Virus record (IMG/VR): IMGVR_UViG_3300033067_000113
Location: 1-64,000 of that record
Source of the DNA: a virus
Lineage: Duplodnaviria; Caudoviricetes
Length of the DNA: 64,000 nt
Reading direction: 5' to 3' (one strand)
In this document: piece after piece, positions 18,517 to 50,070 of the stretch
How positions within the stretch are numbered: the first letter of the stretch is position 1
Layout: each line of letters opens with the position of its first letter
Program-made: the position numbers and the translations under genes
The notes under the pieces: generated by a model
What the model was told of the DNA's origin: nothing
Seen by the model: the letters and a program-made list of their open reading frames with translations, nothing else
Database searches by the model: none

Positions 18517-21500
18517 TTATCCTCGGTCAAATGTTAGTGTTGCATTGTCCATTGAAGTATTATCACCGTCAAAGGTTGCGTTTTCTCTATATTCAATGCT
18601 CTTAAATTCACTGTACCAGATACCCGGTGTGTCTTTTAAGAACTTTGCAATTTTTGTATCATCCTCTTGGATGTTTACTGTACTATCCCAAGAACTACCT
18701 TGGCGTTTAACTATTGTAACTCGTGTACCAAATGGTGCGACTTCTGTTAAGTTAATTGCATTTTCTGTTGTGCTGACTGCAAATTCTGCGGCAAACTCAA
18801 CATCCCCTTCTGGGCTTTCAGGCGCCTGTGTAACACTGTAAAGAACATATGGATTCTTCTTCAGTCTAGTTCCGCCTGCAAATACTTCAACTGCATCTTG
18901 CGATAGAAGTGCAGCCGCCGCTGAGGATAAAGTAGTACCTTTGTAGGTCCATGTGTTATCAAGTGCAACTGTAACTGATGTTAAGTTAATAGTATCAGTG
19001 CCAGTAGATATAACATTTTCAATCATAGAAGTTTCTACATATGGAACTGTTTCACTTGGTCCAATGTCTTGGACTTTTGATCCAACTGGATGAACTGTTG
19101 GGGTTCCAGTACCGAGTGTACCTCTGCGTAGTTGACTCAATATGTTGCCATTGATTGCAAAATATTCAATTCGTTCGCCACGAATCTCTACTACGCCTGG
19201 CTTATTTTTAGCAGGGTTAGGGATGTCAAAGTTACTTGAATCTACTACCTCAATTGTTAAATCATTATAACGCAATGCTCTTACTAGCTCCGTTTGTTTA
19301 TTTAAACTCAAACGCTTAAAGTGTACACGATTCAACATATCTTTGAACTGCATGTATGCAATACCAGCTGATAGTACATTGCTACCAAAAGTTACAATAG
19401 AAATTCTATCATCGTATACAGGGTTAATTGCTAACTTGATCGTTGACAAGTCTGTTAACAATTTAAAATCAACGCCTGGTACTAGTAACTCACCGTTCTT
19501 AGTTACCATTACATAGTAGTCATTAATTACTGCACGGTCAAGTTTAATACGACCGCCAGTTAAGCCAGTATAGTCGTAATATTCTAATGTATCAGGCACT
19601 AATGCGATGTCTGACTTAACAGTGAATCCGCCGCGTTGAATATCTAATATATCGTGTTTGTAGAAACTAGTAACTTCTAAAGTACTACCAACAGTATATG
19701 AATCAGCAAGAACAATCTTTGCTGATGCTAGTGAAGTTGCTGGTACAAACAAGTAACCGCTATTGCTTCTAATGCTGATAATTAATTGCTGTCCGCTATG
19801 TTGTGCATACACTTTCTTGTTAATCTTAATGCTGATACCGCCTAAGTTTGGAATGTAATCAACTCCAGACACTAATAAAGTAGAACCAGCAATAACTACC
19901 AAGTCAGTAATTTCTACGCTGTAAGGAACAAAACGCTTTGGATCAATTTCGTAAGTTAGTCGATTACTCTTAATTGTAAAGTAAGTGTTGTTTGGACCGT
20001 CAAGTACTACTTGACCAACTTTAACAATCATGTTAGCTTCAATCGGTAGTGAATCACCGTAGCTGTTTTGTAAATTGTATTCTAAAGACTCAGTTACTTC
20101 AAATCGTTCTGTCTTAGTAACAGAGTAAGATTGGTCTGCACCGCTTACAATTACAAAATTAATAACAGAATTAGCTAGTGGAGTAATAGGGAATCTAATA
20201 CCTACACGATTAGCAGAATCGTATGTGTCATCTGTTTTAAAGAACTCGACATCAGTTTGCTCACCGTTAACATAAACTAATCCGTTCAATGCTGTTACCC
20301 AAGGTGCTTTAGTAATGAACTCAGATGTTAATCCGTTAGCAATAAAGTAATCTAAGTCAAGAATGTTTGCACCTGCAAATCCAAAACTTAACAATGACAC
20401 CACTTTACCTGCATCAGGAACTGCGTTAAAGACTACAACCTTTCTTTGATAGTCAACTGTGTAGTCGTCTGTTTCGTACATGATAGTATCGCCAACTTTA
20501 ACAATTACAGCTTGCTTGCTATTAGGTTGCTGTGTTAATGCAAACTCAGCATCAGTGCCGTTAGCAACATAAGTGTCAACTTTAAGTTGAGCTGAACCGC
20601 TATTTGGTCTATCAAATACTTTAATTGCAACTGCGTCAACAACTTGCCCAGGTACAACTTCTTCAGTTGCAGGACTACTTGTTGGAGTAACAAATCCGTC
20701 GCCGTCTAAGATAATGTCATCTGCTGACAAACCAGTTGCTGATGAATATGCTAGATCGCCGCCGCTTAATGCAGTATCATAGTCTGCTTCTTGAGGCTTA
20801 ATCGATCCGTCACTAGTACTCTTACGGAAGATAAACTGATCAGTTGCGCCAACTGTAAACTCACTAGGAACTGTAATTGTACTGTTAATACCGTCAGCAA
20901 TATAAGTATCCATTACATTATCAACACCGTCAATACGAACTGGTCTTAGTAATGATGAAATCTTAACTGTGCTACCTGCTGGAGCTGGCTCAACTAGTAC
21001 AAGAGTTCCGTTACCATAGATAGTAACATCAGTCGGTTCAATCAATGTTCTAGTAAAGATTAATGATTCGCCTGCGACTAAATCGTCAAACAATATTTGA
21101 CTTAATTTAATCTGTGTGCCGTTAACTACTGACAATATAGTTGTGTCATAACCAAATACACCGGTTCGAGTTGCAGTAATGACATCACCTGCTTTTAGTC
21201 CAGTGGTATCATCAATAGTAATTGTTGAAACGCCGCTAGTGTTAGTACCAGCATCAATAGTAATGACTACTGTTACCACTGGCTTAACATCAAGAATGTT
21301 ATAAGTGTAAGTTGTTTCTACACCGTCAGATAAGTGTTCATCAGTGTTGTACTTAACATGGTATGCGTTGATTTCTGTGCCGGCGGCTGGAACATATGGT
21401 AATTCAAACACATGATCGTCTGCAGAAACTGTTACAATGTAGTCGTCGAATGTTGGGTCAAAGCTGTCCCACTTATCTGAATAGTAAGGTAATGTTCCCC

Positions 21501-24500
21501 AGCCTGCGCTTACACCAAAGTCTAAACCGCTGACAATTACGCCACCGTAGTCAACACCAGTCATTAACTGAGATAGGTCTTTACCTAATTCTCCGCTAGC
21601 TGGATTGTAGTAGTATTGGATTCTATCTGCCGCACTAAGCACTGACCAATCTTTAATATATGTTATTGAGATAGGAGCGTCTTTTGCTACAGGAGCAGTA
21701 AACTGGATTGAACCTGAATAGCTAGTATAGCCTCTGCTAGTAGACTTAACTGTAGATAGCTTATAGTTGTCTTTAAGAACCTCAACGCCGTTGACAGTTA
21801 CGCTTGATTTACCGTAGCGTGTATCCGGAGCCCACTTTAGAGGCCACTGTAGTCTTGAACCAGTGCCAGTAAATGTTTCAGTTTCTTCTAGTTGTGTAAT
21901 AAAGTAAGTTTGAGTAATACGATCAAACTTCATCTTAATGTAGTTAGAACGAATTACACTTTCACCAATGTAAGCTACTGCTCTAGCATCTACGCCGCCT
22001 TCGCTTCCTAACCCGCCTTCAATAACAACTTGGGGAGTGCTTAAATATCCTGATCCAGGTGTTAGTAATACAATGCGATTAACTCGACCGTTGCTGATAA
22101 ATGCACGACCTGTTGCGCCTGTACCTGTGTCGCTAACAAACTTAACTACTGGAGCATTTGCATAACCTGATCCACCGTCTACTAGAATTAAATCAGTTAC
22201 AGTAAATCCTAAGTTATCTTTCCAATGCTTCCATGGATAAGAATTAATAGCATCGTTATCTGATACAACCGCACCTTCAAAGATGCTAGTTGCAATTGGC
22301 AATGTAGTCTTGTTTTGATACACTGGCATTAGATCAAAGTCAGTCATTGACAACGCACTGTTGTCTAGTGTTGAATAACCGCTTACATACTCTCTAACCT
22401 TAGTTCTATAAGGCTTAACTTCGTTAATGTACTCTTCGTAATTTTCTAAGTTATCATTGTTATAGTTAACTAACTGTCGTAGGCTACCAGTGTTGTGTTG
22501 TGCTTTTACAAAACTTGTCTTGAATACCCAATCTACAAAGTTCTGTTCTGAAAGAACATAGCGAACACTTGTAAAGAACAAGTTTAGATATTCAGAGCGC
22601 AGATCATCAATTAAGATATCATCTCTTAACGCTGTGAGTATAATGCGTAACTCTTGGCTTGCTCCGTTATCAAACATGCTTCCATCATACAACGAACCGT
22701 CAAAGCCGTAAGTTGTATTAGTAAAGGTGTAAATTGTCTTGCTCAATTGGATAGTGCCGTCTTGGCTACCGACAACTTTATATTGCTGTGTCCAGTCAAT
22801 ACTGTCAACATCTGCATACTTTTCTAATAGAATCCAGCCGCCAGCATTTGTTGTTCTAACTTTAACAACATTACCAATAGAGGCTGCGATATTGTTAAGT
22901 TCAACAAAGGTGTCAACTGAATAGTTAATAGCAGTAAACTGACTGTATCCAGTAGCATACCAATCAGCATAAGTCCAGTATCTACGAGTGTCGTATGATT
23001 GTGACTTAATTCTAGACCAAGTTAAAGTAGTAGCATCATAAGAGTGAATACTCCATGTACCGTTTGTACCAGAATCACTTCTTACTAATACACAATAATC
23101 ACGGACTGCAAGTACAGTAGAATCAGCATAGCCTTTACCACCAGAAACAATAGTAACTCCAGTAATCTGGCCTTTAGCATTAATGATTGCTTTTAATACT
23201 GCGCCTGAACCTGAACCAACTACTGTAATTTCAGGTGCAACTAAGTAGCCGTTGCCTTTAGCAACGATAGTAACACTAGCAATTTTACCGTTAACAACTA
23301 CAGGTGTTAATGCTGGTCTAACAAAAGACCCAACGCTAGCAAATCTTAGTTCTGCATCAGTGTCTACTACAGTGTCATAGTATCCGCTGGCAATGTTTGG
23401 TTCTGCGTCATAGCTTGATAAGTTAGCAAGACTTCTAGAATTAACAATGTGAGTGTCAAGTAATGTGAAGTTAGCACGCTCAACAAATTGTTTTAACGCT
23501 TCGAAGCGGTTAACAAACATACCTTGGCGTGGACGATTTTCAACACCGTATCGTAGCTTAGGTGCAAGTGCAGGGTCCGGCACTAGTCTGCCTTGACTGT
23601 CTTTTCCGCATAGGCTGTCAAACCATTTATTTTCAATAGTTGCAGGGATTAGTGAGCTTGGATTGTTGCTCAGTAGCTTCCACTCACTATGAATGTTCTG
23701 ATTTGTTGCATCATTGATCCAATACTCAACTGACAACACTACATCTTTATCTTCTAATAAAGGTTGTGCATTGACTAAACTAAATGTATTTGATCCAGTT
23801 AGTGCTAAGAACTTATATCCTTCACCTCTTGGGTTACTGATTAGGTCAGCAATATCTTGTGCAGACTTAACTCGGCTGTTGATAGCAGGAACAGTCTTCT
23901 TGTTCTTTGCCCAGAAATAGTAAGTGCTCTTATAAGTCTTGCTGATGTTGTCGTAACGGCGCTTAACACTATAGCTAGTGCTGCCATATAAACTAGTTCC
24001 GCTGATGCCCTTAGTTAGGCCCTCTTCAGTATCTGCTTGTTCATCCCATTGCGCTGGAGTTAGTGTAGTTTCAACCCACTCATAAACATCAATGCTTGCG
24101 CCAGGGAATAATGTGTTCCAATTGCTGTTTCTATAAGTTAGTTCATTGTCATATGCATCAATGAACTTAGCAGTTCTTAGATCCCACCATAGCATACCAA
24201 CTTTAGATTTAGCCCAAGCCATGCCGTCGTCCACATTAACTGTGTCGTCACCTACTGAGTAGATTGCAGGATCGTAGAATGTCTTGTACTTGATTTCTTG
24301 TTCAGCAATGCCTGGAATTTTTCCTTGAACTGGGTCAACTACATCTAAGTAAGTAACAATTTTGTTAGTCACTCGGTTGTATAAGAATGCCTTCTTAACT
24401 TTAGTTAGATCAGGCTTTGAAATCTCGCGGTGGATAATATTCCAGCTACGAGCATTAGTTGGCTTTCTATATTCATACACTTTACCTGATACAAATGTTT

Positions 24501-27500
24501 GGTCAAGTGCATAAGGTGCGCCAACGACAATGTAATTACCTGCTGTGGCAAAGCCTGAGCCGTAACCGTCGCCAGCACTTGATGGGTTAACTAGCGTTTC
24601 GCTATAGATCCATTTAGTGTCGTAGCGATCAAAGATATCAACTGTGCCGTTATCAACTTTTGTTTGTTTAAATTCAGTAACACGCTCGTCAAAGAATGTT
24701 GTGTTAGCATCAAAAGTAACTTCAGATGTACTGTCTGCATTCTTGCTGTATACAACTAATGTTTCAAAGTCGTTTAAGAATGCAATCTTAGTGCCGAAGT
24801 GACCAGATGTTTCCGGTCTAGTGCTCTTGATAGTTTGGTATTCAACATACTCGCCGGCAACTAGTTCGTATACTTTTACTACACCTTCATTTAGCTTCTT
24901 GTCATCGGCAAGTATTGACGATATTGCAATGTACTTGCCTGATGAACTGATAGCAGTACTCTGACCAAAGTAAGTGTCAGTGCCTGTGATAGTCTGTAAT
25001 AGATTGTAAGAATCATTTGCTAAGTCATAGACAAACACATTACCAGGAGTAGTTGTGCCCGGAGCAGAAATTAACAATCTGTTAGTTGCTAGACTGATAG
25101 AAATTAGTTCTCCAAAATTTTGATTTGGGCCAACTGGTGATTCGATTGTGTTATCTGCATACTTCCAACCTGTAGAATAAAACTCTAAAATTCCGTCTGG
25201 AGTTGAGCTAGGTGCCTTGTTCAACACTAGTTTTGTAGAGTTAACTACAAGACCAACAATTTGTGTTCCGTCAAAGCCGGTACCACGAACATACATGCCT
25301 GGAGTAATACCAGCAGTGCTTGAAACAATTAAAGTGTTTGATGTACTTCCAACAGGGTTGTAATACGGTGTTGCAGAAATTGTATCACGATAATTTACTT
25401 GATAAACAATACCAGTGTCAGACGCATAACCTGCGGCGCCAACAAATAAGGTGTCGTTGCCAAATGCTAAACTTGATCCAAACTGTTCTCCAGCAACTGG
25501 TGTTGGGCTTAAGAATGTAGTTACTAGACTATAGATATTGTTCTTATCTTTTTCATACAATGAAACTACACCATGAGATGCCAGTGTCAAGTTAGTACCG
25601 TTAACATCAACTTGATTTAGTACAGTTGAGGAAATAGTAGTAACACACGCATATCCAACTCTTGGAGAGCCAACTGCTAACCAGCGGCCATCTTCACTTG
25701 CAACAACAACTTCTGAAATTGCTGATAGATCGCTATTTGGATTAATACCAAACGAATTACTCTTAGCAATGAAAGGTTGAACAATAGTTTGTCTTTGAAT
25801 CCAAGGAGCATTTTGTCCTGGAGTCTTATCATAAACTACAATCTCGCCTTTGTTTGTGCTAATGCCAATGATATTTGCGGCTGCGTTTAAATTAATAGAG
25901 CGACCATATCCTAGGCTTTCAGCAGGGTTAGTATTACGCAACACAGTTGATGTAAACACTGCATTGTATTTCCAAGTTGCCCAAGTGCCGTTACCTGAAT
26001 TATCAGTCCATAGCAATTCATTCTCTAGAATGTCTGAGGGGATAACTTCGTTAGCAAGATCAATCGACGAGATGCGCTGTGTAGTCAAAGCATAAATTAA
26101 GATTGACAACTGCTCTGTAAACGGTGTCCAACCTGCAACTGTAGCATCAACTGTAAACTTGTTTAATGTCTTTGATTTAATCTTGTAAAATCCGCTAAAC
26201 TTTTCAACATTGCTGATTGCAATATAAGACCCAACTTCTAGATCAATTAGTTTAGTAGATGAGATTGTTAGTTCTTTTGCACCAGAATCATAAGTTACAT
26301 CAAGCACATCAATAAAGGTAGGAGTGTATCTGTAAACATTCCAGCTTGGACCGTCAGTACCTGCCCAGATGTAATTACCTACAACGAATCCTGCATTAGA
26401 TGCTGTTAGAATATCGTCGATGTTGCTGACAATCAACTTAACTTCGTCGGGACGAACATATCCCGGAGTGCGAAGGAAGGCCTTGTAATCAGCAACTAAC
26501 GGCCATGGATTGTTATTATAGCCCAATGGCTTTAGGTAAACATCTGTGGGAGTTTGACGATAGACAAAATCTACTTTTGTTTTATCAATAGTATTAACTA
26601 GCTCAAATGCTTGAGGATTGTTCTTAAACTCAGCTTCGTCTAAAACAAATTCAATGTTTTCAAAGCTAGCATTGGCACCGTACTGACCTACACGCAATGC
26701 CCATTCTTCGTAGAAGTCAATGCTGTCAGTGCCTTCGGCACTTAGTACATCAAACAATTTATTTAAACTGTTTTGTGTACCTTTCTCAATAATCATGCCT
26801 TGGTAGAACTTAAACTCGCTTACATCATCCTTAATGATGTTTGACAAGTACTGACGCTTTTGATAGCCAATTAAGTGCTGGGCCATTTTCTGTTGGCCGG
26901 CATCAAAATTATCACTGTCTAGATCATAGAAGTCTGTAAACTGTGCAGCCTTGTATGTCCAGTTAGGCAATAGTTGTGCTGTTGGTTTTTGCTCTAAGCG
27001 GTACCAGCTAGTTGCTTCAAACGCTGAAGTGCCTGGTGTAAATGCATTAGCAGTATAATAGAATTCTTTGTACTTAACAATATCGCCTAGAGAATAATCT
27101 TTCCACGCTTCCCAGTCTTCAATTGTTGCTTGGTCAAAGATAAAGCCCGGTGCATCAAATGCACCTTTCCAATCAGTAGTCACATAACCTGCAATTTTAA
27201 TACGGTCTTGTTTGTAACCGCTTGCAGGATTATAGATAGTATCGTTGAACATTGTGCTGTTGTTAAGCAGTACAACTTGTTCTTTCTGTACCAAGTAGAA
27301 TGTTGCACCGTAGATGCCGTCTTCTCCCTGTGGGGTGTAACTTACTTTGTTATCGTCTCTGTATGAATTTAAGAAGTTTGGAGTAATTGGGGTCCCGTCG
27401 GCTTTAAAAATCTCGTAGCCGTTGAACGGATTACGGATATCATCAACTACGCTGATAGGTGCGTTGAATGTTACTTTCAATGCACTTGGGCTTAGAGAAA

Positions 27501-30500
27501 TAACAGAACTACCTACAGTATTCAATCCATCTAATTTAACAAAGTCATCTTCGATTAGGAACGGGCTAGGTGGAGATGTACGGATAGCACGGAAGTAATC
27601 TCCGTTGTAGCGAACAATTTCCCCGAACTTAGTTTCAGTTTCAGGTAACCAGTCTTTCCATTTGTCAGATCCAGTACTCCAGTTCTGTGTCGTCCAGAAC
27701 ATAAATTCTTTTGCACTAGTTTCCCAGTTAGCTACTGCGCCTAGGTTAAGGTTAAATTCGTCAAAGACAAATCCTTCGTCCTTTAACCACTCGCCGTAAC
27801 CTAATAAGAAGTCAACAACTTCTTGCACTGTTCTAAACTTAGTGCTGTAGGGAACAGTAATAGCTTCATCTCTGTTCCACTTTGTTCTAAAGTATGCATC
27901 GCGTCCGCCAATGATTGGCAAACTTGGTAGAGTTTGATACTTTGAAATATCAAAAGTAGTTGCAACATGCAATACTTTCACTCGATAGTATCTGTTGTTA
28001 TAGGCTACAATCTTGCCAGCGGCATATTGTTCACCTTGAGTCCACTGGCTGAAACTTTCCGAGATACCGCCAATGTTAACTACTCTACCGTCTTGTGTAT
28101 ATGGGTAATATTTGAAGAACGGCTGAGTCTTGCTGTAGCCTTTAACTTCGAATCCATCTTCTAACTTAGTGATAATAACACCACTGTAAGTAATTTTCTT
28201 AATTGGACTTGAGCTATTAAGGATAATGCTGTAGTCTTCTTGAGGGATGAATACCCCTGCAGATGCAGTAGGGCTCTTGCTATCTAGTAGCAAGTTAAAT
28301 TTTTCTTTGCTAGTAAATCCGCCAACACGGTAACTAATTTGACTTGCTAGATTATCCATGTCGTAGACATAACTGTCAAACGATTTTAAGTTATCGCTAA
28401 CAATGTAATCAGCAATATAGTTAATAATACCTGAAGTCTGTACTCGAGTTTTGCTAGAATAAATGCTAGGGAACACAACATCGCTAGGTGTAATTCTCAA
28501 TCCAGTATCTTTGTAAACTAACTGTCCTGTTAGATCTCTAACAATTCGTGAACGGTCTAATAGTAGGCCAAAGATCTTCGATGGGTTCAATAGCATCATT
28601 GTCAGTATCACAGCAAACGGATAGTGACTGCTTCTGCGCCATGTAGCTTCAATTGGGCTAACATCGCCGAATACAAAATCGCCTGCGGCACTAGGTGTAA
28701 TTACACCAGTTGACATATTTGATAGTAGAGGACTAATTAAGTTTCCAGATTCGTCAACAGGAATACATCCTACTAAGAATGGTCTTTCAAATCCTGCCTT
28801 AATGAATGCCGGCTTGCCTGGTTCTCTTACAATACCTGCAGCCATGTCTTCCCATAGGATCAAGTTGTCTCTAGTATAAGGAGCAGGTCCATACACACTA
28901 GTCCACCATGTTGGTTCTTCAAAGAATCCTAACATTTCCCAAGGGCAAATATTTGGACGGTCAGTATCTAACATCCAGCGATAGATACCTCTCCAGTATC
29001 CCGGAGTTTCTCTACCATCCGGAGCAGCATGTCCGCGGTAGTTGTAAGTCATTGAGTTATTTCTGTCATAGCTCAATGGCTTACTAAAATCTCTATCGAT
29101 TAAACTTGTCCACTTGTAGAACTGTGGAGACAGTACTTCGTTAAACTCTGCTAACGAGTATTGTGTTTCTCTAATATAACCCGGTAAAAAGTCGTAGATA
29201 TTAAAGATGCTAGTATCATACTGTACTTTAATGTTATTGTAAATTCGTTTTTCTAATTCAAGAATTAGATCATCACGGAAGTCACCATACGCTAATACTT
29301 GACTACCATCGTGACATTGGATCATTACACGCGGTGTAATCAAACTAGTGTCAGTATAAATTTTAGGTTCAAACTTTGGCCAGATGCCTAACTTGGTAGG
29401 AGTTGCTGGGATAAAACATCCGTCAGTGTTGTCATATTCGTAAACTGTAATAACATCACCGTTCTGTAGAGTTGCTAAAATTTCAACAAACCCTAGACCG
29501 TCAAATGTATACTCTGTCCCGTACAATAGTTGTGTAGAATTTAGATACACATAGACTGCTTTGTTTGATAACTTTGTTAGATCAAAGTTTTCAGACAACG
29601 GATATTTTTTATTTCTATAGTCAATAACTGTAAAGCTGTTAGCAACTTTAGCAGTATATCCTGCCATGTCACTAAAATAGTAAGGAGCAGTAGTTGGCTT
29701 GTCTTTGTTAATTTCAGCTAATACTAAATTAACATGTTCAACAGTTGCAATATCAACACCTAGTGATTCTGCAATAGTAATAAAACTTCGTTTAAATTTA
29801 TTGTAGTCAGCTTGGCTTTGCTCAACCGCTCTAATAACATTGTTGTTATCAGAGGTAATGTGGTACATTGACAAGCTAGCTGGGCCGCTATGTTGTACAA
29901 ACTTAGTACCAAACTGGGTTACATTTCCTAAGTCTCGTAAATTGTTTACGCCTGGGTAAGACCCTTCAAACGCAACTGTGTTATCTACGATAGAGTTAAC
30001 ATGATCGATAACTTCACCTAAAGTGAATTCGCTGATAGTTTCATTTAAAGGATTATTTTGTAAGTTGATTGGAATCTCATAATAGCCTGTGCTATTAACT
30101 GGCTGTGCAGTGAAGGCACGGATTGTCAATACATCAGTAGTTGCAATGTCAGTAGTCAATACTACTTTTTTGTAATCAGGGCAAGTGGTTAATGTCCATA
30201 GAGACTTATCTAAACGGATTCCGTTGACATATATTCTAACTTCTAAATCTAGTAGATTATTAACATCATCAAAAATGTCAATTTCAAAATTGTTTACTTT
30301 ACCGGAATTTTTATAAATTCTAATTGCGGCCTGTGTATTCTTAGCACTGCTAATTTGCCATCCGTTAACATACGCAACTGCGGCTGACTCTGTAGACTTA
30401 ACTAAGTGTCCAGCGGCAATTTTTTTAGTAACAATTTCTGCAACATCTTTGTACTCAAAGGTATCTGTTGCTAGGGCAAAATTGAATACAATGTCGCCAA

Positions 30501-32313
30501 TGTTATTAATGTTCTTGTGACTTAATGCAAATCCTAAATTAGAATCTACAGTACCAGTACCTACTTTATATGAGAATAAAGTTGTACCTTTAAACGAAGA
30601 ACCATCATATACTGATGTATCGCCTAGACTGTAACCTGCATTATCAACTACATCAAATAATGGAGTTTGATTGCGGCCAGTTTTCTGTTGTGTGACTTTC
30701 CAAGTTGCGCCATCATACCAGTACATCAGACCTTGATTCTTAGTACCTTGCTTAACTAGTACAACATCGTTTTCAATCGGATCGTCTTGTGCAATTAGTT
30801 GTACTTGGCGACTTGATATTCCGTTCTGTGTAGTATGCAGTACATCGATAAAGTTTACTAGATAAATTTTATTCTTAACTAGAATATCAGTGTCAGCAGT
30901 AAACAATACACGCATGCCTTGGGCTAGTGTGACTCCGTCAACATTATAACCTAAGCTGCCTTCAATTGTTGAAAACACATCAGTAGTATAAGTGTCAATT
31001 AAATCAACATCAGGTACAGCTTTAAGGCCAAAGTTAAACAACTTTAGGTGTGCATCAAATTCAATAATTGGACGGACAGCTCGTGCTGACTGGTCAACAC
31101 TGGCAATCTTTCCATTAAATGTTGCGCTGGCTTCAATAACATCCTTGTGGAACCAACGGTTGTAACGGCTCCATGGGTTATGGTCACGGCTGGCGCGGTT
31201 AATTACTACATAATCTGGGTTCTTAGCAAACGATGTTGCATCACTGAACGGCATGTTGTCGAATGGCGTATCATCAAACAGAACTGATTCAGTTACAGTA
31301 TATGCACTTACTAATTCTAAGATAGATTCGTTAACTAAAGTGATAGCATCGCCGACACCTTCAACATAATATTGTCCAGTGGCATACTCAGCAGGTTCTA
31401 CATTTCCGTAGAAAGATACTTTCATACCGTTGCTTAATGCAGTACCGTTTTCTAATGTGTAATTCTTCTTGCCGATAATTTCTGATTGAACATTGATGTA
31501 AGTGTTTTCATCAATTGATACTACTTGGAATACTCCGCCTAAGTCTAGATCATTCTCGCTTAGGAAGTATAGTACATCAGGAGAATCGTAAGGAACTTCA
31601 AATGTTAATACACCTAATTCAATTGCATTGTTTGTAATGCCTTTTGAATATCTTTCTCCGTCGCCTGCTACTCTAGCAGTCTTAATACTAAACGGATTTC
31701 CTGGACTAGTTACAGAAAACTTGTAAGTTTGTCCCTTGTATAATTTAACTGTAGGGTTTCTTGTTAATCCGTCAGGAGTAAACACAAAGCTGTTGCGGTT
31801 ACCCTCAGCTTCAACTGTAACAGTAAACTCGCTAACTACTGCAAGGCGCTGTCCTTTAATTCTAATAATATCTGGGCCGTATGGTAACCAGTAGTATTGT
31901 TGAAAGTTTACAAACTTGTCCCAATTGATGTGCGGATCCCATGAGTAAAACTCTTGGCTGTTAATCTTAGCATGGTGGTTGGTGTTTGAACCAAATACTG
32001 ATAATTGGTTGATGTAATCTTGATAGTCTTTAAAGAAACTAGTATTGCCAATTGTATCTTTAACTGTGATACTAGGTTCTAACTGGTATTGCTGTCTAAC
32101 TGCATTAGCCGCGGCAACGAATACATCGTCACCAGTTGTTGCTTTACTATTTTGTCTACCGATAAAACCATTGACTTTATCAACTGTACCAGTTTGGATT
32201 AACTGGTCTACTGTTGCTTGTAGAAATTTCTTATTGGCATCCGAGCGATAAAACCTTGGTAGGAATTCTGATGTCTTGCTATTGGTGGCGCTTGGATTAA
32301 TCTTATCAGCCAT
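18517..32313 (-). CDS. giant (4598 aa) baseplate-associated structural protein
   Basis: One uninterrupted 13.8-kb ORF directly after the gp6-like gene, with FG-GAP-like repeats, GxGYxxxPxVxI modules and repeated FD-rich motifs. Confidence 0.75.
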   Translation of the reverse strand: MADKINPSATNSKTSEFLPRFYRSDANKKFLQATVDQLIQTGTVDKVNGFIGRQNSKATTGDDVFVAAANAVRQQYQLEPSITVKDTIGNTSFFKDYQDYINQLSVFGSNTNHHAKINSQEFYSWDPHINWDKFVNFQQYYWLPYGPDIIRIKGQRLAVVSEFTVTVEAEGNRNSFVFTPDGLTRNPTVKLYKGQTYKFSVTSPGNPFSIKTARVAGDGERYSKGITNNAIELGVLTFEVPYDSPDVLYFLSENDLDLGGVFQVVSIDENTYINVQSEIIGKKNYTLENGTALSNGMKVSFYGNVEPAEYATGQYYVEGVGDAITLVNESILELVSAYTVTESVLFDDTPFDNMPFSDATSFAKNPDYVVINRASRDHNPWSRYNRWFHKDVIEASATFNGKIASVDQSARAVRPIIEFDAHLKLFNFGLKAVPDVDLIDTYTTDVFSTIEGSLGYNVDGVTLAQGMRVLFTADTDILVKNKIYLVNFIDVLHTTQNGISSRQVQLIAQDDPIENDVVLVKQGTKNQGLMYWYDGATWKVTQQKTGRNQTPLFDVVDNAGYSLGDTSVYDGSSFKGTTLFSYKVGTGTVDSNLGFALSHKNINNIGDIVFNFALATDTFEYKDVAEIVTKKIAAGHLVKSTESAAVAYVNGWQISSAKNTQAAIRIYKNSGKVNNFEIDIFDDVNNLLDLEVRIYVNGIRLDKSLWTLTTCPDYKKVVLTTDIATTDVLTIRAFTAQPVNSTGYYEIPINLQNNPLNETISEFTLGEVIDHVNSIVDNTVAFEGSYPGVNNLRDLGNVTQFGTKFVQHSGPASLSMYHITSDNNNVIRAVEQSQADYNKFKRSFITIAESLGVDIATVEHVNLVLAEINKDKPTTAPYYFSDMAGYTAKVANSFTVIDYRNKKYPLSENFDLTKLSNKAVYVYLNSTQLLYGTEYTFDGLGFVEILATLQNGDVITVYEYDNTDGCFIPATPTKLGIWPKFEPKIYTDTSLITPRVMIQCHDGSQVLAYGDFRDDLILELEKRIYNNIKVQYDTSIFNIYDFLPGYIRETQYSLAEFNEVLSPQFYKWTSLIDRDFSKPLSYDRNNSMTYNYRGHAAPDGRETPGYWRGIYRWMLDTDRPNICPWEMLGFFEEPTWWTSVYGPAPYTRDNLILWEDMAAGIVREPGKPAFIKAGFERPFLVGCIPVDESGNLISPLLSNMSTGVITPSAAGDFVFGDVSPIEATWRRSSHYPFAVILTMMLLNPSKIFGLLLDRSRIVRDLTGQLVYKDTGLRITPSDVVFPSIYSSKTRVQTSGIINYIADYIVSDNLKSFDSYVYDMDNLASQISYRVGGFTSKEKFNLLLDSKSPTASAGVFIPQEDYSIILNSSSPIKKITYSGVIITKLEDGFEVKGYSKTQPFFKYYPYTQDGRVVNIGGISESFSQWTQGEQYAAGKIVAYNNRYYRVKVLHVATTFDISKYQTLPSLPIIGGRDAYFRTKWNRDEAITVPYSTKFRTVQEVVDFLLGYGEWLKDEGFVFDEFNLNLGAVANWETSAKEFMFWTTQNWSTGSDKWKDWLPETETKFGEIVRYNGDYFRAIRTSPPSPFLIEDDFVKLDGLNTVGSSVISLSPSALKVTFNAPISVVDDIRNPFNGYEIFKADGTPITPNFLNSYRDDNKVSYTPQGEDGIYGATFYLVQKEQVVLLNNSTMFNDTIYNPASGYKQDRIKIAGYVTTDWKGAFDAPGFIFDQATIEDWEAWKDYSLGDIVKYKEFYYTANAFTPGTSAFEATSWYRLEQKPTAQLLPNWTYKAAQFTDFYDLDSDNFDAGQQKMAQHLIGYQKRQYLSNIIKDDVSEFKFYQGMIIEKGTQNSLNKLFDVLSAEGTDSIDFYEEWALRVGQYGANASFENIEFVLDEAEFKNNPQAFELVNTIDKTKVDFVYRQTPTDVYLKPLGYNNNPWPLVADYKAFLRTPGYVRPDEVKLIVSNIDDILTASNAGFVVGNYIWAGTDGPSWNVYRYTPTFIDVLDVTYDSGAKELTISSTKLIDLEVGSYIAISNVEKFSGFYKIKSKTLNKFTVDATVAGWTPFTEQLSILIYALTTQRISSIDLANEVIPSDILENELLWTDNSGNGTWATWKYNAVFTSTVLRNTNPAESLGYGRSINLNAAANIIGISTNKGEIVVYDKTPGQNAPWIQRQTIVQPFIAKSNSFGINPNSDLSAISEVVVASEDGRWLAVGSPRVGYACVTTISSTVLNQVDVNGTNLTLASHGVVSLYEKDKNNIYSLVTTFLSPTPVAGEQFGSSLAFGNDTLFVGAAGYASDTGIVYQVNYRDTISATPYYNPVGSTSNTLIVSSTAGITPGMYVRGTGFDGTQIVGLVVNSTKLVLNKAPSSTPDGILEFYSTGWKYADNTIESPVGPNQNFGELISISLATNRLLISAPGTTTPGNVFVYDLANDSYNLLQTITGTDTYFGQSTAISSSGKYIAISSILADDKKLNEGVVKVYELVAGEYVEYQTIKSTRPETSGHFGTKIAFLNDFETLVVYSKNADSTSEVTFDANTTFFDERVTEFKQTKVDNGTVDIFDRYDTKWIYSETLVNPSSAGDGYGSGFATAGNYIVVGAPYALDQTFVSGKVYEYRKPTNARSWNIIHREISKPDLTKVKKAFLYNRVTNKIVTYLDVVDPVQGKIPGIAEQEIKYKTFYDPAIYSVGDDTVNVDDGMAWAKSKVGMLWWDLRTAKFIDAYDNELTYRNSNWNTLFPGASIDVYEWVETTLTPAQWDEQADTEEGLTKGISGTSLYGSTSYSVKRRYDNISKTYKSTYYFWAKNKKTVPAINSRVKSAQDIADLISNPRGEGYKFLALTGSNTFSLVNAQPLLEDKDVVLSVEYWINDATNQNIHSEWKLLSNNPSSLIPATIENKWFDSLCGKDSQGRLVPDPALAPKLRYGVENRPRQGMFVNRFEALKQFVERANFTLLDTHIVNSRSLANLSSYDAEPNIASGYYDTVVDTDAELRFASVGSFVRPALTPVVVNGKIASVTIVAKGNGYLVAPEITVVGSGSGAVLKAIINAKGQITGVTIVSGGKGYADSTVLAVRDYCVLVRSDSGTNGTWSIHSYDATTLTWSRIKSQSYDTRRYWTYADWYATGYSQFTAINYSVDTFVELNNIAASIGNVVKVRTTNAGGWILLEKYADVDSIDWTQQYKVVGSQDGTIQLSKTIYTFTNTTYGFDGSLYDGSMFDNGASQELRIILTALRDDILIDDLRSEYLNLFFTSVRYVLSEQNFVDWVFKTSFVKAQHNTGSLRQLVNYNNDNLENYEEYINEVKPYRTKVREYVSGYSTLDNSALSMTDFDLMPVYQNKTTLPIATSIFEGAVVSDNDAINSYPWKHWKDNLGFTVTDLILVDGGSGYANAPVVKFVSDTGTGATGRAFISNGRVNRIVLLTPGSGYLSTPQVVIEGGLGSEGGVDARAVAYIGESVIRSNYIKMKFDRITQTYFITQLEETETFTGTGSRLQWPLKWAPDTRYGKSSVTVNGVEVLKDNYKLSTVKSTSRGYTSYSGSIQFTAPVAKDAPISITYIKDWSVLSAADRIQYYYNPASGELGKDLSQLMTGVDYGGVIVSGLDFGVSAGWGTLPYYSDKWDSFDPTFDDYIVTVSADDHVFELPYVPAAGTEINAYHVKYNTDEHLSDGVETTYTYNILDVKPVVTVVITIDAGTNTSGVSTITIDDTTGLKAGDVITATRTGVFGYDTTILSVVNGTQIKLSQILFDDLVAGESLIFTRTLIEPTDVTIYGNGTLVLVEPAPAGSTVKISSLLRPVRIDGVDNVMDTYIADGINSTITVPSEFTVGATDQFIFRKSTSDGSIKPQEADYDTALSGGDLAYSSATGLSADDIILDGDGFVTPTSSPATEEVVPGQVVDAVAIKVFDRPNSGSAQLKVDTYVANGTDAEFALTQQPNSKQAVIVKVGDTIMYETDDYTVDYQRKVVVFNAVPDAGKVVSLLSFGFAGANILDLDYFIANGLTSEFITKAPWVTALNGLVYVNGEQTDVEFFKTDDTYDSANRVGIRFPITPLANSVINFVIVSGADQSYSVTKTERFEVTESLEYNLQNSYGDSLPIEANMIVKVGQVVLDGPNNTYFTIKSNRLTYEIDPKRFVPYSVEITDLVVIAGSTLLVSGVDYIPNLGGISIKINKKVYAQHSGQQLIISIRSNSGYLFVPATSLASAKIVLADSYTVGSTLEVTSFYKHDILDIQRGGFTVKSDIALVPDTLEYYDYTGLTGGRIKLDRAVINDYYVMVTKNGELLVPGVDFKLLTDLSTIKLAINPVYDDRISIVTFGSNVLSAGIAYMQFKDMLNRVHFKRLSLNKQTELVRALRYNDLTIEVVDSSNFDIPNPAKNKPGVVEIRGERIEYFAINGNILSQLRRGTLGTGTPTVHPVGSKVQDIGPSETVPYVETSMIENVISTGTDTINLTSVTVALDNTWTYKGTTLSSAAAALLSQDAVEVFAGGTRLKKNPYVLYSVTQAPESPEGDVEFAAEFAVSTTENAINLTEVAPFGTRVTIVKRQGSSWDSTVNIQEDDTKIAKFLKDTPGIWYSEFKSIEYRENATFDGDNTSMDNATLTFDRG

Positions 32314-46121: not shown

Positions 46122-47195
46122 ATGAAGATATATGAAATAATCGCGGAAAGTAATCAGGTAGATGAAGGTGTTGCTAGTGCTTTAGGTAAAGGATTAGCAT
46201 GGGCTGGTGGTAAACTGGCTAGTTCTGACATTACTAAAAAAGCAGTTGCGGATCTTGCCGCTGAATATGCTAAACGAGCTATGGCTATTCAACGAGCTGG
46301 AAAAACTGTTCCTCCAGTTAGTGCAAAGTTTATTAAAAATAATGCGCCTAAAGATGCTAAACGATTATTATCTGATCCTAAGTATATTGCAATGATCCAA
46401 AAAGAAGGTGACAAGATTATGCGAAATGCTAACTTGTCTGCTGTAGCTGGTAAAGTTGGCTTGTCAAATCTTGTAAAGGGTTCTAAGTGGGATATTACTA
46501 AAGCAGTTGGCAGTAAGTTGGTAAAACTCTATTCAACTTGGCAAGTTATCGGCATGTTCAGAGACTATAACTCAAATGTTAATGCATGGGATGCAGAACT
46601 ACAGAAACAACTAGCCGCTGGCAAAATTACACAAGAGCAATATCAAGCACAGCTTGATCATATCCGTAAAACTGAAATGGGATTACTGGTTACTAAAGTA
46701 GGAGCTGGTCTACTTGGCAGTGCTATCGTTCGAGGCACAGTTGCACCAGTTGCAGGCTTGCTTAAACTAATTCCACTAACTGCGCCAATTGGATCTATTA
46801 TTTCTGGTCTAGGTGCCGCAGGCAGTGCGTATCTATACACTAAATTAAATTCTAAAGAAGGTAGCGAAGCAGTTGCTAGTGTTATGGTTGGTAATGCGTT
46901 AGGCGATGCTGCCACTTCTGCTATTGGTGGGACAGTAACTAACGCAATAGATTGGCTAACTGGTACTGCTAAAGAAGCCGCTGAAGTAGACAAACAACCA
47001 GCTCAAGGTGGCCAAGGCGCTAGTCAAACCCCAGTTAATGCGCCGGGACAACAACTAGCTAAACCTGCTGCTCAACCAGCGGCCGTTCCTACAGCACCGA
47101 CAATGCCGGGCAATAATATAACTGCTAGAGGAGATTTAGATACTCCGGCAGGCTACACTAGAGATGCCGCAGGTAATTTAATCTACGGAAATTAA
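46122..47195 (+). CDS. hypothetical late protein, Ala/Gly-rich with hydrophobic segment
   Basis: 357 aa; MKIYEII.E..VDE N-terminus, long hydrophobic stretch, Pro/Ala/Gln tail. Confidence 0.7.
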   Translation: MKIYEIIAESNQVDEGVASALGKGLAWAGGKLASSDITKKAVADLAAEYAKRAMAIQRAGKTVPPVSAKFIKNNAPKDAKRLLSDPKYIAMIQKEGDKIMRNANLSAVAGKVGLSNLVKGSKWDITKAVGSKLVKLYSTWQVIGMFRDYNSNVNAWDAELQKQLAAGKITQEQYQAQLDHIRKTEMGLLVTKVGAGLLGSAIVRGTVAPVAGLLKLIPLTAPIGSIISGLGAAGSAYLYTKLNSKEGSEAVASVMVGNALGDAATSAIGGTVTNAIDWLTGTAKEAAEVDKQPAQGGQGASQTPVNAPGQQLAKPAAQPAAVPTAPTMPGNNITARGDLDTPAGYTRDAAGNLIYGN

Positions 47196-47425
47196 AACCA
47201 CGGTAGTTGAGTTTCTTTAGTAGTTTCTAAGTTATCTTCAATTACCGCATACATTGCGTCACGGTCTTCGCTAGAATAAAAATGTAAGAGTTCCTGCATA
47301 GATACACCTCCACGCATAAACCAGCTAATTCTAGCTAGTTCTTTTTTAAAATCCTTAATTTGTTGATCTAGCCCAACTAGATACTCTTCAATTTCTTCGT
47401 TAGATAATTTAGTTAGGCGCTGGCG
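47192..47425 (-). CDS. start-less 77-codon ORF, predicted -1 frameshift extension of the gp26-like gene (gp51/GT-like)
   Basis: Open frame RQRLTKLSNEEIEEYLVGLDQQIKDFKKELARISWFMRGG...TQLPWF* begins right at T_TTT_TTC and fills an apparent gap; its TAA overlaps the TAA of the opposing gene. Confidence 0.7.
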   Translation of the reverse strand, partial: RQRLTKLSNEEIEEYLVGLDQQIKDFKKELARISWFMRGGVSMQELLHFYSSEDRDAMYAVIEDNLETTKETQLPWF

Positions 47426-48240
47426 AAAAAACTTGAGTTGTCCATCTCAATAGTGATACTAGATTGATGCCCGCACTCAGGACATTCAACTGGGTGTGTT
47501 GGACTTTCCCATTCGGCTCTTACCTTGGCTAAGTGTTCTTTGATAGCATCAAAGATAACCTTATCGCAGTTTTCCAACCACTCGTTAATATAAGTTCTTT
47601 CAGATACTACAGTATTACCTACTTCTACACTTTCAATACTTGTGGATAGTGCTTCGTTTTGAACTAGGGCAATGTCTTTGAATAAAGCATTCATAAGTTC
47701 TGCTCGTTCTTTGTCGTCTTCAATCTTGTCCGCTTGTCTAATGCGTTGTTGAAGCTGTGCGTTTTTAATTGAGAACTCAGTAATTTGTTTATAGGTTAAT
47801 GGTTGTAGTTTAACTACTAGATCTTTTAAAACAATCTTGTTGTCATACTTACAATTGGTATAGTGATCGATTAGTTTAGATAATTCTAATGTGTAGTCGT
47901 TAACTGTTTTGCAACCTGGGCACACATGTTCCACTTCCATAAGGTTACCAAATGTAGCAATACGGATAGCAGTGAGAATTAAGTCAACATCTAAGTTGCT
48001 AACATCCCATCCGTTTTTAATCACAGGGCAACAGCTTTCAATAACCTTAACTGTAGTCTCACCTGAGTACAACGCATCAGGTGTTTTGATCAGTATTTCA
48101 TCCATGCCGGTCATTCCGTACACAGGCATGTTCTCCACAGGCCCTTGTAGTGTACCTGGCTGGTTAAATGCACCTTTTGACGGTAAACTAATGTAGATCT
48201 TAGGTTGTCTAAAGAACTGTTGTAATGGGTTTTGTGACAT
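47413..48240 (-). CDS. baseplate hub / tail assembly chaperone, T4 gp26/gp51-like
   Basis: RQPKIYISLPS..MPVYGMTGMDE..DVDLILTAIRIATFG; two CxxC motifs (CPGC, CPEC); ends SSFFASA. Confidence 0.7.
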   Translation of the reverse strand: MSQNPLQQFFRQPKIYISLPSKGAFNQPGTLQGPVENMPVYGMTGMDEILIKTPDALYSGETTVKVIESCCPVIKNGWDVSNLDVDLILTAIRIATFGNLMEVEHVCPGCKTVNDYTLELSKLIDHYTNCKYDNKIVLKDLVVKLQPLTYKQITEFSIKNAQLQQRIRQADKIEDDKERAELMNALFKDIALVQNEALSTSIESVEVGNTVVSERTYINEWLENCDKVIFDAIKEHLAKVRAEWESPTHPVECPECGHQSSITIEMDNSSFFASA

Positions 48241-48253
48241 ATCGCACTCCGGA

Positions 48254-48275
48254 TAAATATATAATAGTATTTATA
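48254..48275. promoter_or_regulatory. crossed divergent late promoters
   Basis: TAAATA on + at 48254-48259 (towards 48301) and TATAAATA on - at 48275-48268 (towards 48240). Confidence 0.6.
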
Positions 48276-48300: not shown

Positions 48301-50070
48301 ATGGCAGTTGAAAACGGCGCAGAGTTTATATCCTTCTTAGGAACGGCAGCAACCGGTCTGGGCAAACTTGCGACAGGTACTGCTGACCTTGGCACAGCTA
48401 TGGGAGTAGCTACTAGTTCGCTTAAACTAATTCCTGGCGTAGGCGATGGCTTGAGCAAGCTAGCAGGCGGAACTGCTGAGTATACCATGGCTGTTAATAA
48501 AGCTGCCAATGCTGGCTCTAATTACGGTACAGCAATGGCTAATAATGTTGGACAGTTGCAAGAATTGACTAAAAATTCTCGCATGACACTGGATGACTAC
48601 AACAGAATTTTAGCTCAGAACTCTGTTGGCATGAGCGGCATGGGTAAAAACATGGACGAGTCTGCCAAACGATTTTTACAGTTTGGTGCTATTTTACAAG
48701 AGTCTAATGTTGCAGAGAATTTAAAGAAAGCAGGTGTTAGCGAAAAAGATTTTAATGACTTACTGGCTATTTCTATGACTAATCGTAGAACATTAGACAT
48801 GAATGATTCAAAAGCTAAACAGGCTGCAATTGAAGGAACAATGCAACTAGCTCAACAGATGGACGAAATTGCTAGAGTCACTGGTAAGAGTGCAGAAGCC
48901 CAGCGCAAAGATTTAGCAACTAGTTTAGCAAGAGCTGATGTTCAAGCTGAATTGCTAGGCATGTCAGATGCACAGCGCACTGAATACATGAAAATGAAAG
49001 CAGCCGTTGGCCCGCTTGGCGAATCAATCGGTAGTCTTGCAGATGAAATCGCAACTGGCGGTGTTAGAACTAAAGAAGGTTCAGCTAAGTTTGCTGCCTT
49101 AGGTCCAGCAGGTGCTGATTTTGAAAAAGCAGTACTAGCAAGCAAAAATGCTGTGACGCAACGAGAGAAGGACGAAGCCGCTGCCGCAATGGAACGAGCT
49201 AAAGTTCGAATCACTGAATATCAAACAAGTAAAGAATTTAGAGACCAAGTTAAGTATGACACAACTGCTACTGGTGATGCAGCTCGTAAGCAGTTCCAAG
49301 AAAACGCAACTATTAACTCTCAACTTGCCGCAATTAGAAATGACGGTATTAAGACTGAGAAAGAATTAATTGACGCAAAGAAAGACGCTGCTAAGAAAAG
49401 CGTAGAAGGTAAAGATCCAACTACTGGAAAAGTAGATCCAGGTAGTGTAGTAGGGCAAGGATTAAACAAAGCAGAAATGGCCATGCAAGCGACTGTAGCG
49501 GCTGTTGGCGGGCAAATTAAAAAGCTCGGTGATGAAGCTGGTGCAGCCGCAGCCAATGTAGGATTGCTTGCTAAAATTCCAACTACTAGAGCACAGGTTG
49601 AAAAAACTGGTGGCGATCTTATTAACAAAGTGACTGGTGCTAAAACAACTCCGCCGTCTACTGTAGGTTACACTCCGGGCGCACAGCCGGTAAGTAGAGC
49701 AGAAGGCTCATTAGGATCAGTTGGTAAGCTAATTGAAGATTTTGGTAAAGGTACTCCGGCAGTGTTGCACGGTAAAGAAGGTGTTGTTACTGAGAATCAA
49801 TTAAACGGTATTATTGCTCAAATTAAATCAGCGGCACAAGCAGAAGCTAGCAAAGTATCAGAAAGCGCTGCATCCAAAGTATCGACGACATCTACAGCAG
49901 AACCAGCTGTAGCAAGCAATAATTCATCCATGACTGAACTAGCGACCCAGCTAAGTCAGTTAAATAAGATGATGGGACAATTAGTATTTTATTCTGAACA
50001 AACAGCCGAGAATACAGGCTCACAGATTAAAGCTACTAAAGGTTTGTCTGGTAATAGATTGGCCTTCTAA
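48301..50070 (+). CDS. tape-measure-like protein
   Basis: 589 aa, Ala/Gly/Lys-rich and helical; C-terminal FGKGTPAVLHGKEGVV motif; sits next to the chaperone gene. Confidence 0.6.
   Translation: MAVENGAEFISFLGTAATGLGKLATGTADLGTAMGVATSSLKLIPGVGDGLSKLAGGTAEYTMAVNKAANAGSNYGTAMANNVGQLQELTKNSRMTLDDYNRILAQNSVGMSGMGKNMDESAKRFLQFGAILQESNVAENLKKAGVSEKDFNDLLAISMTNRRTLDMNDSKAKQAAIEGTMQLAQQMDEIARVTGKSAEAQRKDLATSLARADVQAELLGMSDAQRTEYMKMKAAVGPLGESIGSLADEIATGGVRTKEGSAKFAALGPAGADFEKAVLASKNAVTQREKDEAAAAMERAKVRITEYQTSKEFRDQVKYDTTATGDAARKQFQENATINSQLAAIRNDGIKTEKELIDAKKDAAKKSVEGKDPTTGKVDPGSVVGQGLNKAEMAMQATVAAVGGQIKKLGDEAGAAAANVGLLAKIPTTRAQVEKTGGDLINKVTGAKTTPPSTVGYTPGAQPVSRAEGSLGSVGKLIEDFGKGTPAVLHGKEGVVTENQLNGIIAQIKSAAQAEASKVSESAASKVSTTSTAEPAVASNNSSMTELATQLSQLNKMMGQLVFYSEQTAENTGSQIKATKGLSGNRLAF

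Follow-up and report, generated by a model that had tools for sequence, protein, structure and literature searches.

Can a single gene of a T4-related jumbo phage give rise to two proteins, a short and a long one, by means of a change of reading frame close to its end? This question is raised by a locus on the minus strand of the IMG/VR virus record IMGVR_UViG_3300033067_000113 (Duplodnaviria; Caudoviricetes), positions 1 to 64,000 of which constitute the stretch of DNA analyzed here (hereafter, the window). At this locus, an open reading frame (ORF) related to genes 26 and 51 of phage T4 ends shortly after the heptamer T_TTT_TTC, and a second frame, displaced by -1, continues from there for 77 codons. 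All coordinates correspond to positions in the 64-kb window; the parent record (73 kb) is a fragment which, by estimate, represents about 20% of the genome. The source is an uncultured giant T4-related lake phage, placed by tblastn among the RaK2, 121Q, GAP32, XacN1 and Atu_ph07 jumbo phages (23-32% identity); blastn of the locus against GenBank phages yielded no match.

The answer favored here, with a probability of about 0.86, is that the locus carries a conserved -1 programmed ribosomal frameshift of the tandem-slippage type, giving products of 275 and 349 amino acids (aa). The site displays the hallmarks of this type, and they are retained among very distantly related phages. According to this proposal, the gene would be transcribed late and translated from the ATG at 48240 until two Phe-tRNAs occupy TTT and TTC (47430-47425), where a stem-loop located 6 nucleotides (nt) downstream would make the ribosome pause. 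A fraction of the ribosomes would then slip one base back onto T_TTT_TTT and resume with CGC (Arg) in the -1 frame. Those ribosomes that do not slip would terminate three codons on and release a gp26-like short form of 275 aa, ending just after the two phenylalanines (FF), while those that slip would produce a gp51-like long form of 349 aa with a helical C-terminal domain of 77 residues. The two proteins would be the short and long forms of a baseplate-hub assembly chaperone, whose T4 equivalents would be the paralogous genes 26 and 51. From comparative evidence, we infer the ribosomal nature of the slip, the making of and the need for both products, and their ratio. The two products had already been predicted by an earlier reading of the DNA made without database searches (the sequence-only reading, which gave the long one as about 349 aa), and the comparative evidence set out below strongly supports them.

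The slippery site at the end of the gp26-like gene

The 0-frame ORF (47413..48240, minus strand) encodes a baseplate hub assembly protein of the gp26/gp51 family. Its 275-aa product matches Pfam family PF12322 (T4_baseplate) at 8.6e-17 and 62 bits (gathering cut-off, 24.5 bits), with residues 55-272 aligned to profile positions 39-218 of 219, as well as the PHROG family phrog_150, annotated as "baseplate hub" (1.8e-18). The AlphaFold2 (AF2) model of the protein reaches a predicted local distance difference test (pLDDT) score of 89. No other gene of the 73-kb record, which covers about 20% of the genome, matches PF12322.

The site and its register can be read directly from the DNA. The ORF ends in AGT TTT TTC GCC AGC GCC TAA, which places the heptamer T_TTT_TTC (47425..47431, minus strand) in exact X_XXY_YYZ register, where it codes for the conserved C-terminal FF. 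From the C at 47425 to the stop codon at 47194-47192, the -1 frame is open for 77 codons (47192..47425, minus strand), so that the predicted long product comprises 272 + 77 = 349 aa. The first 36 of these codons include no ATG, GTG or TTG; the earliest start codon in frame is the ATG at 47317 (codon 37), which lacks a Shine-Dalgarno sequence. The stop codon of the -1 frame shares the TTAA at 47192-47195 with the stop of the convergent gene 46122..47195. With regard to the identity of the ORF, the register of the heptamer, the length of the open frame, the lack of ATG in its first 36 codons and the overlap of the two stops, the sequence-only reading was correct, and it can be added that GTG and TTG are missing from those codons too. 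Within the window, 62 in-frame X_XXY_YYZ heptamers occur across the 61 ORFs of at least 100 aa, and this one alone lies no more than 60 nt from the stop of its ORF and opens a long -1 extension. On its own, the extension matches no family in Pfam or PHROG.

The jumbo-phage comparison set consists of (i) 15 IMG/VR loci with 49-95% identity; (ii) 20 GenBank jumbo-phage loci; and (iii) 80 IMG/VR loci found by profile search. One hundred distinct proteins from this set were used for codon-level statistics. Throughout the set, there is an in-register heptamer at the C-terminal FF, from which the -1 frame remains open for 69-80 codons, with three exceptions: an in-frame fusion (locus L037), the error-ridden record of phage CMSTMSU, and Bacillus phage SP-15. 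The same architecture is present in cultured jumbo phages such as RaK2, PBECO4, GAP32, CBB, Cassandra, XacN1 and Atu_ph07, among others.

Conservation of the heptamer across aligned homologous loci, which the sequence-only reading had pointed out as a means of checking its proposal, is complete: all 100 distinct homologues have it, as TTTTTTC (98) or as TTTTTTT, i.e., T_TTT_TTT (2; XacN1 and CM1). It is kept beyond the need of the encoded residues in these homologues, and 64/64 homologues from P-SSM2-like cyanophages keep it as well. The codon before the heptamer encodes any of eight residues (S, N, D, H, T, A, G or R) and its third base is invariably T (100/100). The terminal FF is written TTT-TTC in 98/100 and TTT-TTT in 2/100; among the other FF pairs of the same genes, TTT-TTC accounts for 8 of 32 and all four combinations are used. 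The base that follows the heptamer is G in 97/100, as a result of which the first codon of the -1 frame is CGN (Arg) in those 97, with its four third bases occurring 28, 24, 23 and 22 times. By contrast, the 0-frame residue at this position varies (A, G, V, E or D), and the 0-frame stop follows the heptamer at a distance of 3, 9, 12, 18, 30 or 33 nt. Since CGN is kept almost throughout in the -1 frame while the 0-frame residue and the position of the stop vary, the selected frame switches exactly at the heptamer. In view of this comparison with relatives, a chance origin is very unlikely.

Some members of the set deserve a separate mention. In loci L038, L044, L046 and about 30 others, an Asn codon (AAT) before FF generates a second, overlapping in-register heptamer, A_AAT_TTT. 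As a slip site, this heptamer was set aside, because it is found only where the preceding residue is Asn, being thus lineage-specific, and re-pairs poorly. In Bacillus phage SP-15 (KT624200, L033:1880-2110), a homologous extension (…SYYIPGMTWEA…ER…) is in the +1 frame after GAA TTT TTT CAC, an arrangement that could be due to a +1 slip on TTT_C, to a -2 slip, or to a one-base homopolymer error in a truly in-frame fused gene. Escherichia phage CMSTMSU (MH494197, L030:2000-2060) has T5 in place of T6 and its gp26-like gene is also split upstream, which, in a record labeled "UNVERIFIED_ORG", looks like an assembly or sequencing error.

The extension, the RNA stem and the natural fusions

The coding signal of the extension is equally a matter of direct observation. 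Nucleotide diversity is highest at codon position 3 and lowest at position 2, equally so in codons 1-36 and 37-77. In codons 5-36, pN/pS (a simple proxy of dN/dS) amounts to 0.53 in the -1 frame vs. 0.92 and 1.44 in the other two frames, so the impression that the codons upstream of the internal Met look like protein is borne out. As far as initiation is concerned, (i) upstream of the Arg codon, the -1 frame closes at a median distance of 7 codons; (ii) 68/100 homologues have no start codon (ATG, GTG or TTG) before that codon or within five codons after it; and (iii) in 47/100 the first start codon is at least 16 codons into the extension. Independent initiation cannot explain the extension, because the peptide is conserved from the junction onward.

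Downstream of the heptamer, the RNA can form a stem. After a spacer of 6 nt (47419..47424), RNA folding places the 5' arm of a putative stimulatory stem, GCCTAACTA, at 47410..47418, where it holds the 0-frame stop (47415-47413), and the 3' arm, TAGTTGGGC, at 47371..47379, all on the minus strand. For the window, RNAfold gives a stem of 9 base pairs (bp) (47418-47410 / 47379-47371; -15.0 kcal/mol, z = -2.8). In a 14-member subfamily, RNAalifold recovers a 10-bp consensus stem with compensatory changes at 3 of the 10 pairs; 97.9% of the cells are paired in this alignment vs. at most 59% when the partner is slid. Other subfamilies have the same 5' arm with a 3' arm at a different distance. More generally, the 80 nt downstream of the heptamer fall, in half of 96 loci, within the most stable 10% of segments of the same gene (median rank, 0.10), a comparison whose P value overstates independence, since the sequences are related.

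Natural fusions provide a further line of evidence. With the 77-aa extension as query, a full phmmer search retrieved 112 relatives, 11 of which are the C-termini of proteins of 319-351 aa; the N-terminal parts of the eight fusions that were scanned all exceed the PF12322 gathering score. Together with locus L037, the only one that an IMG/VR profile scan for the DNA of fused forms detected (single-protein scans of IMG/VR detected none), the natural in-frame fusions total 12. The junction of L037 reads CGT TTT CGT and, for this reason, it is not a homopolymer artifact. The predicted slip products and the natural fusions are collinear, with zero gaps at the junction. In the fusions, the first F of FF is missing. 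This residue is invariant only in the genes where the frameshift exists and, hence, it is retained for the slippery sequence and not for the protein. When the family tree (FastTree) is rooted on T4 gp26 and gp51, the fusions fall into two groups nested among frameshifting lineages (supports 0.72-0.99), which suggests that the frameshift is the older state. According to the AF2 model of one fusion (pLDDT 87), the junction falls within a helix and the extension, a C-terminal domain with the motif ISW[FY]MRGG…ER, is all-helical.

Regarding the expression of the gene, a GGAG Shine-Dalgarno sequence (48247..48250, minus strand) can be read 6 nt 5' of the ATG at 48240, and a T4-type late-promoter-like box, TATAAATA (48268..48275, minus strand), lies 28 nt upstream of the start codon. 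A promoter function of TATAAATA would follow from established knowledge of T4 late promoters. This is the single exact copy in the window, where 5.8 would be expected by chance, and the T4 late-promoter word appears, in consequence, to be depleted elsewhere in the window. Both elements ahead of the start codon are consistent with late expression. Elsewhere in the window, a large minus-strand block includes one ORF of 4598 aa (18517-32313, minus strand).

Slippage weighed against other explanations

The simplest alternative is that there are two ordinary genes, the downstream ORF being a separate small protein ("mini-gp51") with its own start codon or translated through termination-reinitiation after gp26. 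This is how databases deal with the region: GenBank annotates the small protein as a gene of its own or omits it, and none of the inspected records has a joined coding sequence; nor did the literature yield any report of the slip, though papers beyond those searched may exist. In several lineages, besides, an ATG overlaps or abuts the 0-frame stop. Nevertheless, in the window such a gene would have to begin at codon 37, at an ATG devoid of a Shine-Dalgarno sequence, and, across the family, the position of the start is not constant, although conservation of the peptide begins at the Arg codon immediately after the heptamer. Two separate genes would also leave unexplained the conservation, at the nucleotide level, of T_TTT_TTC and of the T that precedes it. 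Also at odds with two genes are the collinearity between natural in-frame fusions and the predicted slip product and the location of the junction, which falls within a predicted helix of the fused protein. All things considered, a separate gene is improbable.

The other two alternatives concern the run of T itself. RNA polymerase might stutter on T6 and add one U to some of the mRNAs, from which the same long protein would be made. The site is indeed a homopolymer, a one-base insertion yields the same frame, and two lineages have T7. In bacteria, however, efficient transcriptional slippage generally calls for runs of at least about 8-9 A or T, next to which T6 is short; moreover, the strict register of the run relative to the codons, the C and G that invariably follow it and the canonical spacing of the stem (6 nt) characterize slippage by ribosomes and not by polymerases. 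Polymerase stuttering is thus given a very small chance. The last possibility is an artifact or decay, in which a true 349-aa gene would seem to be broken through a misread homopolymer or a recent frameshift mutation. It is true that T6 is error-prone on some platforms and that the low-quality CMSTMSU record reads T5, but more than 160 distinct homologues share the same in-register T6, and they come from independent isolates and metagenomes whose sequencing spans two decades; besides, the true in-frame fusions have another junction (CGT TTT CGT). Error or decay is extremely unlikely.

Ribosomal slippage itself has several points against it. All the support for the slip is comparative, in every member of the family. 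The downstream stem is not evident in every lineage (z = +0.3 in RaK2 and -0.5 in GAP32). An upstream Shine-Dalgarno-like stimulator is absent: only 4/100 homologues have one within 20 nt. In Atu_ph07, Phosso, PBECO4, P-SSM2, S-PM2 and KVP40, an ATG is found 1-4 codons past the slip site, overlapping or abutting the 0-frame stop, and it is possible that re-initiation gives an extra free small protein in these phages. The sequence-only reading had regarded a start codon proper to the downstream ORF of the homologues as contrary to its proposal; the 68 homologues mentioned above have no usable start near the junction, and these lineages do have an ATG there. Lastly, the jumbo-phage extension shows weak similarity both to the tail of T4 gp51 (P = 5.5e-4; hhalign probability, 12%; permutation, 1/300) and to the cyanophage extension (hhalign probability, 30%).

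Comparison with known systems

The closest known systems are found in phage T4 and its relatives. T4 gp26 and gp51 are both listed as hub assembly chaperones (Leiman et al., 2010; PMC3004832). Both T4 proteins (gp26, 208 aa, ending in …EFFELL; gp51, 249 aa) match PF12322 end to end, and gp51 runs 48 residues beyond the equivalent F. Thus, gp26 ends just past FF, as the predicted short form does, and in gp51 a helical tail continues past that F, as in the predicted long form. There are also differences: in T4, two separate, divergently transcribed paralogous genes take the place of the one PF12322 gene plus frameshift proposed here; the FF codons of gp26 are TTC TTT, which is non-slippery; and the tail of gp51 is shorter than the extension described here (48 vs. 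77 aa), with weak sequence similarity between them. T4 has two PF12322 genes, whereas RaK2, PBECO4, GAP32, Atu_ph07, P-SSM2, S-PM2 and KVP40 have one each.

A previous study (Sullivan et al., 2010; PMC3037559) found the "gp51" of cyanophages and of a marine vibriophage to have only about 20% of the length of its T4 counterpart and to match the C-terminal part of the latter. Because of this report of a short gp51, P-SSM2, S-PM2 and KVP40 were examined. In all three, gp26 carries an in-register T_TTT_TTC at its FF codons, the 0-frame stop follows 3 nt downstream, and the annotated small gp51 corresponds to a -1 ORF of 57-60 codons which begins at that heptamer. The same arrangement is present in 64/64 distinct IMG/VR loci of P-SSM2-like cyanophages. 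The suggestion of the sequence-only reading that T4-type gp26/gp51 gene pairs can be frameshift-coupled is borne out by these phages. As in the jumbo phages, the "mini-gp51" (KVP40.0327 in the KVP40 annotation) directly follows gp26, in the -1 frame, with T_TTT_TTC at FF and one PF12322 gene per genome. Its distinctive traits are a shorter extension, of 57-63 codons, a constant distance of 3 nt from the heptamer to the 0-frame stop, and an ATG at 3-4 codons into the extension, on account of which it has been annotated as a separate gene; the literature regards it as a truncated gp51 and not as a frameshift product.

By profile comparison, the cyanophage/KVP40 extension shows clear homology to the tail of T4 gp51 (hhalign probability, 96%; E = 3e-9), and the jumbo-phage extension is homologous across the jumbo groups (98.3%). 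A hidden Markov model of the jumbo-phage extension found no significant match in T4 gp51; a full-length profile alignment of the jumbo-phage form with gp51 extends through the tail. The extension comes directly after the terminal F of the PF12322 domain, at the same position as the gp51 tail and the "mini-gp51". The jumbo-phage and the cyanophage/T4 extensions are probably the same element, with the identical architecture being a stronger argument than sequence similarity. T4-type gp51 homologues (P0119-P0210) carry, alongside PF12322, the newer Pfam family PF28602; in a precomputed domain list, PF28602 is not recorded on stand-alone homologues of the jumbo-phage extension.

If the frameshift is real, a "core" gene pair of T4-like phages needs re-annotation: what databases present as gp26 with a minute or absent gp51 would constitute a single recoded gene that gives two products. 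Such a re-annotation would affect hundreds of genomes, including those of model cyanophages, KVP40 and jumbo phages that are candidates for therapy. The frameshift would account for the length of the cyanophage gp51, about 20% of that of T4 gp51 (PMC3037559), and leads to the testable idea that gp51 is the long form of gp26. It would also illustrate, in nature, how a frameshift can give way to gene duplication (T4) or to in-frame fusion (12 cases).

Outside the T4 group, two systems can be compared. As is proposed for the locus under study, the dnaX gene of E. coli (tau/gamma) gives two forms in a set ratio from a single gene, through a -1 slip on a heptamer of the X_XXY_YYZ type with a stem-loop downstream. 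But while the dnaX slip yields the shorter product and is assisted by an upstream Shine-Dalgarno-like element, the slip proposed here would yield the longer one, and that element is not seen. In tail assembly chaperone (TAC) genes (lambda gpG/gpGT), a conserved -1 frameshift was reportedly described by Xu, Hendrix and Duda in 2004. The description "lambda G/GT-style", which the sequence-only reading gave to the locus, holds as a working scheme (short and long forms of an assembly chaperone); similarity to TACs is absent in sequence and unconvincing in fold. Neither the 275-aa protein nor the extension matches the TAC families of Pfam. With the structural aligner VIA-align, the HK97 TAC (2ob9; Z = 4.5, root-mean-square deviation of 3.4 Å over 79 residues) and YqbN (3klu; Z = 5.0, 3.3 Å over 97 residues) are at the noise level of the tool, its other matches being common helical arrangements; further searches were dominated by a helical hairpin. 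Foldseek against PDB and a profile search of PDB sequences gave no match.

Two Ala/Gly-rich low-complexity proteins flank the locus, one of 589 aa (48301-50070, plus strand) and one of 357 aa (46122-47195, plus strand). The sequence-only reading took the immediate divergent neighbor for tape-measure-like. Its adjacency and divergence are as stated and its likeness is weak: the 589-aa protein has tape-measure clusters among its language-model neighbors (0.91-0.92), no relatives by tblastn or Pfam, and no similarity to T4 gp29. The 357-aa protein has only a faint tape-measure match in PHROG (E = 0.03).

It is conceivable, though doubtful, that gp26/gp51 are true homologues of the lambda-type G/GT TACs, acting on the tape-measure/hub protein, and that the frameshift is ancestral to the whole T4 superfamily, T-even phages having replaced it by duplication into 26 (short) and 51 (in-frame long). 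Were this so, the chaperone frameshift would be universal among long-tailed phages. The lambda gene is upstream of its tape-measure gene and co-oriented with it, whereas here the gene is divergent from its tape-measure-like neighbor, and the T4 relatives of this gene act on the baseplate hub. What both systems would have in common, judging here by comparison, is a -1 slip shortly before the stop of a gene for an assembly chaperone that adjoins a tape-measure-like gene, and a short and a C-terminally extended form with a common N-terminus; the short/long chaperone logic of lambda G/GT would thereby be extended to the T4 lineage. The fact that nearly all lineages have kept the frameshift suggests that, as in lambda G/GT, a set ratio of the short to the long form matters.

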